A stretch of 5,661 nt of DNA from a virus. Lineage: Duplodnaviria > Heunggongvirae > Uroviricota > Caudoviricetes. The DNA is taken from the IMG/VR virus record IMGVR_UViG_2778261667_000016; one strand, given 5' to 3'. The notes below the pieces were generated by a model, which was given only the letters and a program-made list of their open reading frames with translations, did no database searches and was not told the origin of the DNA. Positions 505-5,661 of the stretch are shown in pieces. The translations under genes were made by a program, and so were the position numbers. How positions within the stretch are numbered: the first letter of the stretch is position 1; each line of letters opens with the position of its first letter.

Positions 505-1206
505 TCAGATATCACTTCGGGAAGTTGATAACAACTTTAATTCTGACTCAAGTTCATCAACTCTTTCAGTCAGTTTCTGGATATGGTGAATCAGTGGAAC
601 AACCAGACGTTCGTACATTACACCTTCGGCAACAAGGCCATTGCTGGAAATAGCTTCAGGAGCATCATCTTCGTTAGCTGGTCGCCAGTGTACAAACTGA
701 GGAGCAATTTCTCCCACTTCCTCGGCAATCAATCCGTAGAATCCCCAGTCACTCCTGTCATTTTCGCATTGCGACCTGTACCACACAGGGCGCATCCTGA
801 AAATGAGATCGGCGTGCTCTGAATCTATTGTCTCTACTGAATGTTTATAGCGAATAGACGATGTTGACCGCAGTACAGACGAAATTGCAGGGTCAGGATT
901 AAGATAAAGATTTGCCGCCGCTGTAGTCGTGCCCAATTCCCATAAATAAAACGCTTCACGGCCAGTCAGCGGGTAAAAATCTCCACCATAACGACCGCTT
1001 TCCAGATCGTTCACTTCCAGTTTGTTTTTCAGCTTATTATCAACTTCAGTTTTTGTGTATCTGGTGCTGATATCCTGCTTTGCACTGGTCATATCAGTCT
1101 GAAGCGTTGATACTTTTCCGTTAATTGAGGAAATATCTTCCTTAGTTTTACTGACATCTCCCTTTAGCGTGGTGATATCTCCTGGAATTACTGTCGATGT
1201 AGCCAT
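505..1206 (-). CDS. Small fiber-like protein (233 aa) with C-terminal intramolecular chaperone domain (peptidase S74 / chaperone-of-endosialidase type)
   Basis: ATG at 1204-1206 is preceded by GGGAGA (SD) 4 nt upstream. The N-terminal ~70 aa are a polar coiled-coil-like repeat (DITTLKGDVSKTKEDISSINGKVSTLQTDMTSAKQDISTRYTKTEVDNKL). Residues ~116-225 (nt 532-861) follow the intramolecular-chaperone pattern as I recall it: SSIRYKHSVETI (consensus S-D-x-R-x-K-x-N-I), LIFRMRPVWYR, GFYGLIAEEVGEIAPQFV (consensus G-F-I-A-Q-E-V), and YERLVVPLIHHIQKLTERVDELESEL (C-terminal helix). Stop TGA at 505-507. Confidence 0.75.
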   Translation of the reverse strand: MATSTVIPGDITTLKGDVSKTKEDISSINGKVSTLQTDMTSAKQDISTRYTKTEVDNKLKNKLEVNDLESGRYGGDFYPLTGREAFYLWELGTTTAAANLYLNPDPAISSVLRSTSSIRYKHSVETIDSEHADLIFRMRPVWYRSQCENDRSDWGFYGLIAEEVGEIAPQFVHWRPANEDDAPEAISSNGLVAEGVMYERLVVPLIHHIQKLTERVDELESELKLLSTSRSDI

Positions 1207-1215
1207 TTGTCTCCC

Positions 1216-1497
1216 TCACATCCAGCCACGAAGTTGATGCTCAACAACAACCGCGTATTTATCGAATATTGACGATTTTTTTGCATCATTAATGATGCGC
1301 ACGTTTACAAAATATCCGTCTTCCTTAACACATACCGGTTCGCCATCTTCAGTCAGTTCTCCGGTTTCTTTGTACACGTTACCTATCACGTCAATAAGAA
1401 TATTATCCTGCATCGACTCGTCATCATAATAGCCAGTGCTCTCCATAAAGGCCGAAAAGTCGGCCCTGTCTGCAAATTTGAGTGTTAAATCTTTCAT
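1216..1497 (-). CDS. Hypothetical small acidic protein (93 aa), translationally coupled to stf
   Basis: ATG at 1495-1497 overlaps the stf stop at 1497-1499 (TAATG on the coding strand). Stop TGA at 1216-1218, only 9 nt before the next gene. The product is acidic (many D/E), with no signal peptide or transmembrane segment. I recognise no family with confidence and it does not resemble lambda Tfa as I recall it. Confidence 0.6.
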   Translation of the reverse strand: MKDLTLKFADRADFSAFMESTGYYDDESMQDNILIDVIGNVYKETGELTEDGEPVCVKEDGYFVNVRIINDAKKSSIFDKYAVVVEHQLRGWM

Positions 1498-3878
1498 TAG
1501 ATTGACTCCCCCACCTGAGCATCAGTCAATGCCTTGTGCCATATTCTGAAATTCCTGACATGACCAAATAAATGACGTAACCCGGCAGTAGTCTGGCCTC
1601 CAATACGGATAATTGCGGTGTTCTGAATACAGGACCATGTGGTTTTTGTTTCGCTGGATATACGCCCGTTACTTACTGAGCACGTAGACTGATCTGACTT
1701 TACACGCATCCCCATAACCATTTTTTCAAGCGATGCGTTTTCGTTTACCCGTCTGTTAGCTCCTCCAATATCGCAATAAGGAAATCCGTCGTAATCTGTT
1801 GAACGACCGAAGCCAAGAATAATAGCCGCTCCGGTTTGATGACCGCCGGTGTCAAAAACACGCGGAGCTGCATTTGGCGTTTTATACCAGTTCTTATGTA
1901 CCTCACAAAGAACCGTAAAAGGAAGATTATAAAGATTATTCTTAATGGGAACTGTAACTATATCGCTTGCGCGGGTCGCCGCCGTCGTTCCTGATATAAT
2001 AAAAGATGATACACAAGGCCCATTTTCTACTTGTGGGGTGGCCAGATAAATATAGTCACCAGATACGGTTGCCCCGCCCTGCTTAGGAGAATACTGTATC
2101 TGAGAACCTATTTTTAACTCCCCATCAATTGCCTGAATTGTTGCCTCTGCAAAAATCCATCCGGTAGCTTCGTCCTTTCTGACTCTCGCAGTAATCCTTG
2201 AGGCAGCACCGCCTGTCATATTAATTTCAAGCGTTTGTGTATCAATATACGCATCACCAAGAAAAGTTGTTGCGCTACCGTCATATTTATCAAACCGGAT
2301 ACGCAACCTTACCTGCAGTTCTGTTTTAAAACGACATGAGGTTGTCACGTGTTTATTATCGCCTGAGACATCAACTGACTTTGTTGCAGCAATTGATGCC
2401 ATATTAATGGCTGAGGTTTGCCCAATCAGAGAATCGTTGCAGACAAACTTTCCATAGGTAAAACCAAAACTATCCGTCCCTGTTTCGGGCACATCCATAT
2501 TTGACGATCGCCCCCAACTGGCAGGGTTTTCCGAATTGAGCATGTAGTTTGTTCTTTGCCCCTCAATAAGCAGGCCATCACGTTCAAACCGTGGCTCGTC
2601 AATGGCAGCCTCTGTCAGCACACCAGATTTATTAATGTAAGTTGCTTTTGATGCGCGTTTAAACTTTACAACCTTATCGCCAGGCATCGTTATTTCATCA
2701 TCACCAATAACAATCTTTTTATATGACGGCGAAAAGCCCGTAATCATATCCAGTGAATCGTTAAACGGTATCCACACATCGGGAAGCGGCTGCAATACTT
2801 GTTTATACGGCTCCGCAGCCTGGCTTGCATACTCTCTGGCTGCGTCTTCACTTGCTTTTGCAGCCGTCTGGCTTGCAGCGGATGCTTTCGCCGAGTTAGC
2901 CGCCGCAGTCTCGCTCGCCTTTGCGTTGGTTTCACTGGTTTTTGCAGCTTTTTGACTGTTGGCTGATGCAGTGGCAAAAGCAGCCGCCGCGCTTGCAGAG
3001 CCAGCTGCAGCACTCTCGCTTTCGGCTGCTGCATCCTGACTGCTTTTCGCCGCAGTTTCACTGGCTTTGGCATTCGTTTCGCTGGTTTTCGCTGCCGTCT
3101 GGCTGGACTTTGCGTTGGTTTCGCTGGTTTTTGCAGCTTTTTGACTGTTGGCTGATGCAGTGGCAGAAGAAGCCGCCGCACTTGCAGAACCAGCTGCGGC
3201 ACTCTCGCTTTGGGCCGCTGCATCCTGGCTGTTTTTCGCCGCAGTTTCACTGGCTTTGGCATTCGTTTCGCTGGTTTTCGCTGCCGTCTGGCTGGACTTT
3301 GCGTTGGTTTCGCTCGTCTTTGCGGCTGTCTCGCTGTTTTTCGCATTGGTTTCTGATTTTTTGGCTGCTGTCGCGGAGTTTGCCGATGCAGTCTGTGAGG
3401 TCGCTGCCGCCTGTGCGCTGTTAGCTGCATTCGTTTCTGAGGTTTTCGCCGCGTTCTTCGATGATGCCGCTGCAGTTTCGGATTTCTTTGCCGCCGCTGC
3501 GCTCTGAGAGGCGGCTTCGGCGTTGCGTGCCGCTTCTTCCACCATTTCCTGAAAACGGCGCAATGCCTCCGGCATGACATCATCTTCCGTCATGGCACCG
3601 AGAAAATCATTCAGCGTCCCCGGACTGGAACCTTCATAGACGGTAATGGTCCCGGCATGTGAAGGCGGAAAACCTTCAACCAGCAGGGTGACGCTGTACT
3701 GGCCATACTCAACATCCATGCTGTAACGCCCGGCTTCATCCGGATTTTCAGAGGCCACTGTGTTGACCAGTACCGTGGTGCTGTTACGCTTTGCCTTCAG
3801 TTGAATAGTGCAGTTCTGTATTGGTTTTCCCGCACCATCTTTCAGCACACCTGAGATTTTTACTGCTGCCATATCCAC
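1497..3878 (-). CDS. stf: Side tail fiber protein, chimeric: lambda-Stf-like N-terminal anchor, Ala/Ser/Thr heptad-repeat shaft, non-lambda C-terminal putative lectin-like receptor-binding region
   Basis: 793-aa ORF. GGAG lies 7 nt upstream of ATG 3876-3878; an alternative ATG at 3870-3872 would give MAAVKISG. The first ~110 residues (AVKISGVLKDG.GKP.QNCTIQLKA.RNSTTV.VNTV.SENPDEAGRYSMDVEYGQYSV...GFPPSHAGTITVYE...PGTLNDFL.AMTEDD) match the N-terminus of lambda Stf as I recall it. Residues ~113-355 are AAKTSET-type heptads. The C-terminal ~440 aa contain segments such as EGQRTNYMLNSENPASW and a terminal LRHLFGHVRNFRIWHKALTDAQV that resemble concanavalin-A-like/LamG jelly-roll domains. Stop TAA at 1497-1499. 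Confidence 0.88.
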   Translation of the reverse strand: MDMAAVKISGVLKDGAGKPIQNCTIQLKAKRNSTTVLVNTVASENPDEAGRYSMDVEYGQYSVTLLVEGFPPSHAGTITVYEGSSPGTLNDFLGAMTEDDVMPEALRRFQEMVEEAARNAEAASQSAAAAKKSETAAASSKNAAKTSETNAANSAQAAATSQTASANSATAAKKSETNAKNSETAAKTSETNAKSSQTAAKTSETNAKASETAAKNSQDAAAQSESAAAGSASAAASSATASANSQKAAKTSETNAKSSQTAAKTSETNAKASETAAKSSQDAAAESESAAAGSASAAAAFATASANSQKAAKTSETNAKASETAAANSAKASAASQTAAKASEDAAREYASQAAEPYKQVLQPLPDVWIPFNDSLDMITGFSPSYKKIVIGDDEITMPGDKVVKFKRASKATYINKSGVLTEAAIDEPRFERDGLLIEGQRTNYMLNSENPASWGRSSNMDVPETGTDSFGFTYGKFVCNDSLIGQTSAINMASIAATKSVDVSGDNKHVTTSCRFKTELQVRLRIRFDKYDGSATTFLGDAYIDTQTLEINMTGGAASRITARVRKDEATGWIFAEATIQAIDGELKIGSQIQYSPKQGGATVSGDYIYLATPQVENGPCVSSFIISGTTAATRASDIVTVPIKNNLYNLPFTVLCEVHKNWYKTPNAAPRVFDTGGHQTGAAIILGFGRSTDYDGFPYCDIGGANRRVNENASLEKMVMGMRVKSDQSTCSVSNGRISSETKTTWSCIQNTAIIRIGGQTTAGLRHLFGHVRNFRIWHKALTDAQVGESI
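2814..3542. repeat. Array of degenerate 21-bp (heptad-coding) repeats inside stf
   Basis: Recurring DNA motifs (tttcgctggtttt, tttggcattcgtttc, gcagcttttt, etc.) with 21-bp periodicity. They translate in the stf frame to about 35 Ala/Ser/Thr-rich heptads (AAKTSET, NAKSSQT, NAKASET, AAAGSAS ...). Confidence 0.85.
2917..3326. repeat. Near-perfect 189-bp direct tandem duplication (about 2.1 copies) within the stf shaft repeats
   Basis: The string ggtttttgcagctttttgactgttggctgatgcagtggca occurs with gcagc at 2944 and again at 3133, an offset of 189 bp. The flanking sequence aligns over roughly 2917-3116 versus 3106-3315 with only scattered mismatches. At protein level stf residues 185-247 and 248-310 are 63-aa blocks differing at a handful of positions. 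Confidence 0.9.
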
Positions 3879-3883
3879 TCCAC

Positions 3884-3909
3884 AAAAAAGCCCGCCTGAA
3901 CCGGCGGGC
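3884..3909 (-). terminator. Rho-independent terminator between lom and stf
   Basis: GC-rich inverted repeat gcccgcc(3890-3896)/ggcgggc(3903-3909) with 6-nt loop. On the minus-strand transcript it is followed by UUUUUU (A-run 3884-3889 on the plus strand). It lies 28-53 nt downstream of the lom stop and is immediately followed by the stf ribosome-binding site. Confidence 0.75.
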
Positions 3910-3936
3910 TGTCATAACACTGTGTTACCTGGCTAA

Positions 3937-4536
3937 TCAGAATTTATAACCGACACCAACGATGAAACCGTCAGTGCGCCAGTCGCCACTGCCGGAACCT
4001 TCATAAGCAATATCAATGGCCACGGATTCGGTCGGGTTAAACTGCACGCCAGCCCCCCATGCCAGAGACGTGTCGCTGTGGCGACCGTCATCACTTCCGG
4101 TCAGCACATCGTGCGTTTTCCCCTTGTTGTCAGTTACGCGGATATAATCTCCGGAGAAAGTCGAAACACGGCTGTAAGCCATACCCGCCATCGCATACGC
4201 GCTGAACCATTCATTCACGCGCACAGACGGCCCCGCCATCACGCTGAACCAGCGGTTACGCACGGAATCTTCATGCCAGCGGGTATCGCTGTAATGGGTA
4301 AGCTGGCGATTCTTGTCTCCTGCATAGCTGAATGACGTCACCAGCCCCAGTGTGTCCGTAAACTCATAACGGTATTTCACGTTAATCCCGTTAAGATCAT
4401 CGCTGCCGGGAACGTTCGTCGAGGCATGAAGATACCCCGCGCTCAGCGTGGACTGATGTTCAGATGCCCATGCAGGCGCACCGGATACGGCCAGACAGAT
4501 GGCTGCGGAAAAAATGGCGGCATAAAGTTTACGCAT
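3937..4536 (-). CDS. lom: Lom/Ail/PagC/OmpX-family outer membrane beta-barrel protein (lambda Lom homolog)
   Basis: 199-aa ORF with ATG at 4534-4536 and SD-like GAGG 5 nt upstream. N-terminal signal peptide [25 protein letters not shown]-terminal segment [25 protein letters not shown] is the conserved last strand of lambda Lom and the Ail/Lom family, ending in the aromatic residue typical of outer-membrane barrels. Position between J and stf matches lambda. Confidence 0.92.
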
Positions 4537-4558: not shown

Positions 4559-4584
4559 ATAAAAAAGGCACCATTTCTGGTGCC
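4559..4584 (-). terminator. Rho-independent terminator between J and lom
   Basis: Inverted repeat ggcacca(4567-4573)/tggtgcc(4578-4584) with 4-nt loop. On the minus-strand transcript the hairpin is followed directly by a U-run (A-run on the plus strand at 4561-4566). It lies 22-47 nt downstream of the J stop codon. Confidence 0.7.
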
Positions 4585-4605
4585 CTTATATGGGTTATAA
4601 CAATT

Positions 4606-5661
4606 TCAACGAATACTGATGCCGGAAGCGGCTTTTTTGGTCACAATCACCGTACAGTCGGTGATATTACCTGCCCACTGATTGCCTTTATGGAAAACCT
4701 TAAACTCCAGAGTGACGCTTCCCCTGCCACTCGGCATATCAATAACCGCACTGTAGCTACCGGGAATGGCCCCTTTAGTTTCTCTGGATGCGATTAATAC
4801 ACCGTTTTTGCGAACTTCAAAACCATAACCCGTGTATCTTGTACCTCCCGGGTTATTACCACTTCCCGGATCGCTATACGCTATTCCGTTAAAGATAATG
4901 GGCGGAATAATGATTTGACGGTCAAAGTTATGATCATCGCTGATGGTGACTGTAACCGTCCCGTTTGGTGTTTCCGTGTTACCCCACGTACCAGCCTGTT
5001 TCGGAAATGATTTGGATACAGCTTTAACGAAGTCACCTCTGACCTGAGTCGCCTCCAGCATGCCCTTAATCGTACAGTTCTGGTTAATCGTGACATTGTT
5101 GAGCGTTCCTGAGTTCGCATTCACACTACCACTGATATCCGCATTTTTAGCGGTCAGCTTTCCGTCTGATGTCAGGGAAAATACCGGAGGACTGCCACCG
5201 CTGGTAATGGTGGGGGCTGTCAGGCGCTTCAGGAACACGTCGTTCATGAATATCTGGTTGCCCTGCGCCACAAACATCGGCGTTTCATTCCCGTTTGCCG
5301 GGTCAATAAACGCGATACGGTTAGCGGCAACCAGAAACTGGCTCAGCTTGCCTTCCTCCGTGTCCTCCATGCTGAGGCCAATACCCGCGACATAATGTTT
5401 GCCGTCTTTGGTCTGCTCAATTTTGACGCCCCACATGGCATTCCATTTATCGTTAGCGTCCTTCCACTCTTTCGAAAACTCATCCAGTCTGCTGGCGTTA
5501 TCCTCCGTCAGATCAACTTTTTCCAGCAGCTCTTTACCGAGATGGGATTCGGTTATCTTGCCTTTGAAAAAATCCAGGTAACCTTCCGCATCATCGCTCG
5601 CCCGACCGACGGCCTCCACGAATGCCGATTTGCCAACGGTGTTCACACTGCGGATATAAAA
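4606..5661 (-). CDS. J: Host specificity / central tail fiber protein J, C-terminal part (partial; N-terminus lies beyond the window edge)
   Basis: Minus-strand reading frame stays open through position 5661, so the M at 5646 in the ORF track is an internal GTG codon, not the real start. Stop TGA at 4606-4608. Sits immediately upstream of lom and stf exactly as in the lambda gene order J-lom-stf, and the proximal part resembles the distal region of lambda gpJ as far as I recall it. Confidence 0.8.

Follow-up and report, generated by a model that had tools for sequence, protein, structure and literature searches.

A stretch of 5,661 nucleotides from a virus of the Caudoviricetes (IMG/VR record IMGVR_UViG_2778261667_000016), called the window in the following, was analysed with regard to its side tail fibre gene stf (1497..3872), which encodes a protein of 791 amino acids (aa). 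Behind an anchor and a coiled-coil shaft of the lambda type, this protein carries a non-lambda C-terminal module of 438 aa, consisting of two jelly rolls preceded by a conserved segment of about 85 aa. The reading we favour, with moderate confidence, is that of a lambdoid prophage side tail fibre whose two lectin-like jelly rolls probably bind surface polysaccharide, with the products of the downstream genes orf93 and orf233 as partners. An earlier prediction made from the nucleotide sequence (the original prediction) had proposed the three-part anatomy of anchor, heptad shaft and non-lambda C-terminal module, and all three parts were found to be present. Residues are numbered according to the 791-aa form unless stated otherwise; the numbers used in the original prediction are higher by two. 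All features given with window coordinates are located on the minus strand.

In protein alignments, no similarity to the Stf proteins of lambda or phage 434 was detected beyond about aa 354, in agreement with the earlier statement that nothing after about residue 355 resembles lambda Stf. What lambda and 434 Stf have in common with the window Stf is just the anchor and, loosely, the shaft. The first part of the module (aa 354-438; 2559..2813) is recognisable by invariant alignment columns (PLPDVWIPFNDSL ... NEPRFE ... GLLIEG.TN) and shows a mean pairwise identity of 0.79 across phage groups. It is followed by the first jelly roll, D1 (about aa 435-635; 1968..2570), which is of the head-spike-fibre type of gene transfer agents (GTA) and hypervariable between alleles. 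The NCBIfam model NF048003 'phage head spike fiber domain' covers aa 437-637 (numbering of the 793-aa form) with 52.6 bits at a cut-off of 36, and the AlphaFold2 (AF2) model of the module region with D1 is all-beta. The second jelly roll, D2 (aa 636-791; 1500..1967), is of the LamG/Laminin_G_3 type and comprises a variable core (aa ~656-750) and a conserved C-terminal strand (GH.RN.RIWH.ALTD.Q). On the last ~50 residues of Stf, Pfam Laminin_G_3 reaches 17.1 bits and stays below its threshold of 27.6; the same family matches 21 of 22 diverse relatives at E<=1, the best with an E value of 6.4e-12. The module has the beta-jelly-roll fold characterising the superfamily of concanavalin A (ConA)-like lectins and LamG domains, so that the ConA-like/LamG jelly rolls suspected in the C-terminal region could be confirmed as two domains. 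Fold matches include AbnA domain 4, CBM40, pentraxins and BoNT Hc-N, which share 6-16% sequence identity with the module and allow no ligand site to be mapped; the baseplate connector Pa193 gp46 is also among the best. Compared with other ConA-like/LamG domains, those of the module are arranged in tandem at the end of a presumably trimeric phage fibre.

Divergence between alleles of the module is concentrated in two distinct blocks, one in D1 (aa ~440-635) and one in the D2 core (~656-750), with flanks that are at least 90% identical. IdasGreatGrand and PhiR49_1 match the window with at least 90% identity as far as aa ~440, i.e. over anchor, shaft and module start, and with 40-60% beyond; for ev207, at least 90% identity extends to about aa 630, followed by 20-66%. 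In the protein alignments, these nested exchange points place mosaic breakpoints of the module at about aa 440 and 630. The most divergent block everywhere is aa 691-750, which contains the single loop modelled with low confidence (aa 693-714). A comparison of 15 cassettes from five phage groups showed independent variation of D1 and the D2 core; conserved parts are the N-terminal segment of the module, the linker between its domains and the C-terminal strand. Such a pattern of variability would be expected for a host-range determinant under diversifying exchange.

With respect to the ligand, the nearest fold matches for which one is known, AbnA domain 4 and CBM40, are carbohydrate binders. 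The head spike fibre of the Rhodobacter capsulatus GTA (RcGTA), the namesake of NF048003, was shown by experiment to bind capsular polysaccharide (PMC10218006). It is located on the capsid vertex of the gene transfer agent and has one domain of ~200 aa in common with the window Stf, at low identity but with D1 above the curated cut-off. Because of the capsule binding of the RcGTA fibre and the ligands of the best fold matches, a glycan is most likely the receptor of the module. Lateral fibres ending in the module are found in phage groups that are proposed to target O-antigen.

Several points weigh against glycan binding by the module together with orf93 and orf233 as partners. The AF2 model of the module is a monomer, and trimer geometry and sugar site lie outside of it. 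In the literature, no adsorption, binding or structural experiment on the module was found for any phage. For the T5-like phage IrisVonRoten (Bas32), which has a related fibre cassette, O16 recognition is credited mainly to the distal fibre gp24 (PMC11990801). Furthermore, the third gene of the cassette, orf233 in the window, is optional: in ev207 and in all alleles of 686-690 aa, orf93 is directly followed by a homologue of orf103, the last gene of the window. A two-fibre assembly is therefore not universal.

The composition break, which had been judged by eye in the original prediction, was confirmed by calculation. The GC content is 0.55-0.57 over positions 2800-3700 vs. 0.42-0.46 over 1500-2800, and the break is also present in the GC content at third codon positions (GC3). 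On the backbone side, GC3 is 0.555 in J, 0.593 in lom, 0.532 in the stf anchor and 0.496 in the shaft, and it drops to 0.412, 0.371 and 0.385 in the three parts of the module. Since the break persists at third positions, it is not merely an effect of alanine codons. The drop begins with the conserved N-terminal module part and coincides exactly with the shaft/module junction at about nt 2813, within the range of 2800-2900 suggested before. Further downstream, GC3 remains low (0.430 for orf93, 0.391 for orf233) before reaching the backbone level again in orf103 (0.526). Together, the module and the genes orf93 and orf233 make up a single block of low GC3 (about nt 505-2813). Because relatives of this block are found on lateral fibres of several unrelated phage groups, it points to a horizontal acquisition.

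The gene is by no means rare; stf is an ordinary, common prophage gene whose family is already well populated and catalogued. Residues 4-793 (793-numbering) match positions 1-793 of the 793 positions of the PHROG 1419 profile ('tail protein'; E=0). Of 5,426 complete E. coli genomes, 556 (about 10%) contain stf at a coverage of at least 80%, and some part of it was matched in 4,824; among the complete E. coli genomes in RefSeq, none exceeds 99.0% DNA identity to the window. In the cultured phages 2G7b and PhiR63_1, the amino acid identity of the module is 97.7-97.9%, and Tritos has the same allele as well. In a protein set clustered at 90%, 2,525 relatives of the module were found, and there are 2,025 representatives at 50% clustering; a profile search with diverse relatives did not broaden the set of matches listed, the top 120 of which were still close E. 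coli relatives. The module is C-terminal in every case, behind lambda-type (PF08400), P2-type (PF12571/PF03406) and other N-termini. In the phage collection, at least 230 records contain it, 201 of them near full length; it is located at the end of lateral fibres in lambdoid phages, Drexlerviridae, Dhillonvirus, Queuovirinae, T5-like siphoviruses and rV5-like myoviruses. Two further IMG/VR records, UViG_3300022758_000316 (L010, 1298-2611) and UViG_2541047846_000006 (L011, 5001-6314), have a module and an orf93 that are 100% identical at the amino acid level, followed by a 234-aa open reading frame (ORF) whose product has the same first 18 residues as that of orf233.

As full-length collinear relatives are that abundant, the term 'chimeric' would describe an old, widely spread mosaic and not a novel one. 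The original prediction had named full-length collinear homology to one fibre lineage with no composition break as an observation speaking against a chimera. Such relatives abound, as outlined above, yet the composition break and the mosaicism stand, so that only half of this description applies.

The absence of tfa had been read as consistent with a fibre of this kind. Indeed, no Tfa/Caudo_TAP homologue was detected in any downstream ORF of the window in Pfam, PHROG and NCBIfam searches, but this does not imply the absence of a helper, as a coupled small gene, orf93 (93 aa; 1216..1497; PHROG 1361 'hypothetical'), follows the module. The stf stop codon TAA (1497-1499) overlaps the start codon of orf93 (TAATG), with the sequence GGGGGAG just upstream, and by this arrangement orf93 can be regarded as translationally coupled to stf. 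Homologues of orf93 were found in 181 phage records of the same phage groups as the module, and directly 3′ of the module in every case inspected, as seen for lambdoid, Drexlerviridae, Dhillonvirus, Queuovirinae, T5-like and rV5-like phages; this order is shared by five unrelated phage groups. Among 80 IMG/VR loci, 79 have a complete fibre ORF, and in 77 of these an orf93 start is located at most 60 nt from the fibre stop; the two remaining contigs end 24 and 258 nt past it. Judged from this linkage, orf93 is an obligate genetic partner of the module. The confident AF2 model of its product had no structural relative in the PDB, and the 89-aa 'tail fiber assembly chaperone' of phage 434 gave no BLASTP match to it at E<=1e-3. 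It is a candidate new fibre accessory protein.

The genes downstream of stf had been described as small genes, among which a second fibre protein was overlooked. The gene orf233 (505..1206; 233 aa), annotated by PGAP as 'tail fiber domain-containing protein', encodes in this order an N-terminal adaptor motif (MATSTVIPGDITTLK, the first 15 residues), a coiled coil of ~50 residues, a small tip and a Peptidase_S74 domain (26.7 bits, cut-off 22), with a match to PHROG 3299 at the C-terminus. This domain, the putative self-cleaving chaperone (IMC) of the protein (505..861), starts from the Ser-Lys motif SSIRYK (Ser-x4-Lys) at aa 116, which aligns with SDRDLK and SDSRLK of relatives, and self-cleavage is predicted on this basis. 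The N-terminal motif is common to 2G7b gp24 (345 aa), a protein of tunus_83 (245 aa) and the fibres of IrisVonRoten, FGS017 and PMBT29 (574-589 aa), which otherwise differ from one another. For 2G7b, Tritos and PhiR63_1, the similarity to the window ends at nt 1163, just past this motif of orf233.

The best parallel to the whole cassette was found in IrisVonRoten, where gp22, gp23 and gp24 have the identical gene order. Over aa 131-791, a region extending from the shaft to the C-terminus, its gp22 and the window Stf are 52% identical, and orf93 has a homologue in gp23 (37% identity). Like orf233, gp24 has the same adaptor motif at the start and an IMC at the end. Differences concern the anchor, which is of the T5 type in IrisVonRoten and of the lambda type here, and the size of the third protein, since gp24 is a T-shaped fibre of 574 aa with two binding domains, whereas orf233 has 233 aa with a coiled coil and a small tip only. 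In the BASEL-2 paper, the T-shaped gp24 was predicted by AlphaFold-Multimer to attach to the proximal gp22, and the C-terminal 'galectin-like domain' of gp22 was considered as a possible additional receptor-binding domain (PMC11990801), which is the closest published description of the module. Because the window cassette parallels gp22-gp23-gp24, Stf probably forms the proximal portion of a fibre with several components instead of acting as an adhesin on its own.

A possible extension, which we put forward only tentatively, is a portable 'fibre-on-fibre' joint composed of the lectin-like module, orf93 and the conserved peptide at the N-terminus of the third gene product. In this case, the jelly rolls would be glycan binder and socket at the same time, and orf93, either a structural connector or a dedicated assembly factor, would allow any distal fibre of the IMC type to be plugged onto any module-bearing proximal fibre, across siphoviruses and myoviruses including lambdoid prophages. 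If true, orf93, which lacks a structural relative in the PDB, would represent a fibre accessory protein of a new class, and lambdoid side fibres, so far assumed to consist of a single protein, would differ from this assumption.

The same cassette can also be read such that the module is mainly a docking hub, with orf93 and a separate distal fibre attached to its conserved surfaces, the latter by its N-terminal peptide; the receptor would then be recognised by this distal fibre (orf233 here, larger T-shaped fibres elsewhere) and not by Stf. The collinearity with gp22-gp23-gp24 and the published placement of gp24 on gp22 would fit to this, as would the presence of a baseplate connector among the best fold matches and the motif M.T.T.IP.DI..LK, which opens every third-gene product examined. 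Moreover, the identity of orf93 most closely follows the first 20 residues of the third gene product (Spearman 0.84); the coefficients are lower for the C-terminal 40 residues of the fibre (0.44), for D1 (0.41) and for the D2 core (0.11). A functional pairing is suggested by this covariation, in which, however, physical linkage and common descent are confounding factors. A pure connector would not be expected to have two hypervariable and independently exchanged parts such as D1 and the D2 core. In addition, many loci have the module and orf93 but lack the third gene (see above for ev207 and the shorter alleles), and the mature part of orf233 comprises only about 115 aa with no obvious binding domain. 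Hence, we consider it unlikely that docking is the main function of the module.

It also appears improbable that the module binds an outer-membrane protein instead of a glycan. Lambda Stf itself targets OmpC (PMC12617516), and domains of the LamG and BoNT Hc-N type, both represented among the fold matches, can bind proteins. On the other hand, the nearest matches with known ligands and the family giving D1 its name are carbohydrate and capsule binders, respectively, and the allelic diversity with 2,025 clusters at 50% identity fits glycans better than the diversity of porins.

Another explanation concerns only orf233, which instead of being a fibre could act in trans as a folding chaperone for Stf in place of Tfa. 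Its homologues in the BASEL phages KarlJaspers and PeterMerian were labelled 'putative lateral tail fiber chaperone' by the depositors, and the Peptidase_S74 domain is present on orf233 and not on Stf. However, S74 domains as those of endosialidase and T5 pb1 are self-cleaving chaperones acting in cis on their own chain (Golomidova et al.). The protein has its own coiled coil and an N-terminal motif in common with bona fide long distal fibres, and module-bearing fibres exist without any third gene, which makes a trans-acting chaperone very unlikely. Finally, the idea that the module is a depolymerase, in other words a glycanase or lyase with a ConA-like fold that degrades polysaccharide of the cell surface, was rejected as highly improbable, since neither a GH16 motif ExDxxE (or ExDxE) in aa 354-791 nor a glycoside hydrolase or lyase family in Pfam, NCBIfam and PHROGs was found and all top fold matches are non-catalytic binding domains.

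According to the favoured reading of a glycan-binding side tail fibre with two partner proteins, host recognition could proceed as follows. Three Stf chains would clamp the tail tip via their collar domains, as shown for lambda and likely here because of 87-93% identity. The 35 heptads of the shaft would form a trimeric coiled coil, the length of which could be adjusted by whole heptads. At the tip, the three modules of ~440 aa would present 3 x 2 = six lectin-like jelly rolls which, in view of their fold, family and variability, most likely bind a surface polysaccharide such as O-antigen, capsule or the core of lipopolysaccharide in a reversible manner. This would concentrate the phage at the cell surface, or allow it to pass the glycan layer, before the central fibre J engages its outer-membrane receptor. 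From its strict linkage and translational coupling, orf93 may aid folding as an assembly factor or form part of the tip or a connector. Where present, orf233 would dock on the Stf tip by its conserved N-terminal peptide, trimerise and shed its C-terminal chaperone, as suggested by homology to gp24-type fibres and the S74 motif. In the last step, J would engage the terminal receptor.

Compared with the Stf of Ur-lambda, the window Stf has the same J-lom-stf locus, a collar with 87-93% identity over the first ~90 aa, an Ala/Ser heptad coiled coil and presumably also four trimeric fibres per virion. In contrast, Ur-lambda Stf depends on Tfa and continues with a hinge, a gp37-like distal domain containing Gly/His-rich repeats and a tip that binds OmpC, whereas past aa ~354 the window Stf has two lectin-like jelly rolls instead, is not accompanied by tfa and is followed by orf93 and orf233. 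Published work on chimeric lambda Stf (Eligo) and on Gifsy-1 Stf does not mention the module. In concept, the LtfA/LtfB fibres of the T5-like phages DT57C and DT571/2 are similar, as a proximal fibre with its own binding domain also holds the conserved N-terminus of a second fibre; both target O-antigens, and changes in shaft repeat number occur. Unlike the window Stf, LtfA lacks a ConA-like module and carries an IMC of its own at the end, and a gene resembling orf93 has not been described for this system. For the Ltf of the Salmonella T5-like phage Phi37, host-range mutations at residues 468-556 and shaft indels of 42 and 28 aa (6 and 4 heptads) were reported, with the heptad-multiple indels selected during gut evolution (PMC12541327). 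Residues H468, S469 and G491 were found in none of three Salmonella T5-like fibres of the phage collection, and Phi37, a candidate member of the family, serves as a lead only.

The N-terminal collar or anchor domain (aa 1-~100; 3573..3872) is the part of Stf that would dock on the tail tip, according to the function described for Ur-lambda Stf (PMC12617516). Pfam PF08400 'Prophage tail fibre N-terminal' spans aa 5-134 (E 1.1e-65), and aa 5-97 align to residues 2-94 of the solved collar domain of Ur-lambda Stf (9e7m/9mgh; E 1.2e-48), whose 94 residues are the only solved relative of the anchor. A PDB sequence search with the whole Stf gave just this collar and low-complexity matches of the shaft to depolymerases. 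As in lambda, stf is located directly downstream of J and lom. The limit of the lambda-like part, set at ~110 aa in the original prediction, was too narrow: the assignment of the N-terminus is correct, but the shaft is of the lambda type as well, with 60.7% identity to lambda orf-401 over aa 3-273 and the same heptad pattern.

The Ala/Ser/Thr-rich shaft (aa 106-357; 2802..3557) consists of 35 unbroken heptads in a single register with the pattern xAAxSxx (35% Ala, 18% Ser, 10% Thr), from which we infer a coiled coil. The proximal coiled coil of Ur-lambda Stf comprises residues 102-393 (PMC12617516). Within the shaft, a tandem repeat of 189 bp (63 aa or 9 heptads) is present in 2.3 copies (2901..3327). 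At this site, the shaft length of relatives differs by -63, +63 or -105 aa, whole heptads every time, and presumably this polymorphism arises by recombination between the 189-bp repeats. The gain or loss of heptad blocks, and with it the polymorphism in fibre length, concerns the loci L015, L054, L074 and L083.

The stf ORF is uninterrupted on the minus strand (1497-3878) and comprises 793 aa if read from the GTG at 3878. The true start is almost certainly the ATG at 3872, two codons further inside, resulting in 791 aa. A GGAG sequence and the lom terminator hairpin are located upstream of this ATG, the product begins with MAAVKISG... like lambda Stf, and PGAP calls exactly this coding sequence of 2376 nt in E. 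coli Rb-50, the DNA of which is 99.0% identical.

The genes of the window are arranged in the order J (3′ end, cut by the window edge; 4606-5661), lom (3937-4536), hairpin, stf, orf93, orf233 and orf103. The terminator-like hairpin with a T-run between lom and stf (3889..3910) lies where a terminator is annotated in phage 434. A second terminator-like hairpin is located after J (4564-4587), and in phage 434 hairpins are annotated after both J and lom. With such hairpins 3′ of J and lom, stf expression would depend on read-through of late transcription. The receptor-binding end of J is of the 434 type: the last 346 aa are 90-100% identical to 434 J, compared with just 30-45% identity to lambda J across the last ~150 aa. 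Phage 434 adsorbs to OmpC, and the terminal receptor of J is therefore probably not LamB. At the other end of the window, orf103 (204-515; 95 codons from its probable start ATG at 491; PHROG 1443) encodes a small, hydrophobic, probably membrane-located protein, which is 94% identical to the homologues of IdasGreatGrand and ev207; in lambdoid phages, it is conserved as the last gene of the fibre cassette.

Host recognition by lambdoid phages begins with a reversible step that is determined by the side tail fibres, and it is these fibres that are exchanged in the engineering of delivery particles derived from lambda. As the gene, its family and the 'galectin-like' tip of the closest homologue had been recorded before, the advance made here is incremental, with the role of orf93 and the possible plug-in joint for distal fibres as the only mildly novel angle. 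The module family is very common and extends over five phage groups. For annotation, stf, orf93 and orf233 are best read as one fibre cassette. The natural exchange points at about aa 354, 440 and 630 are usable as fusion points, and as the module travels with orf93, chimeras made without orf93 may not fold.

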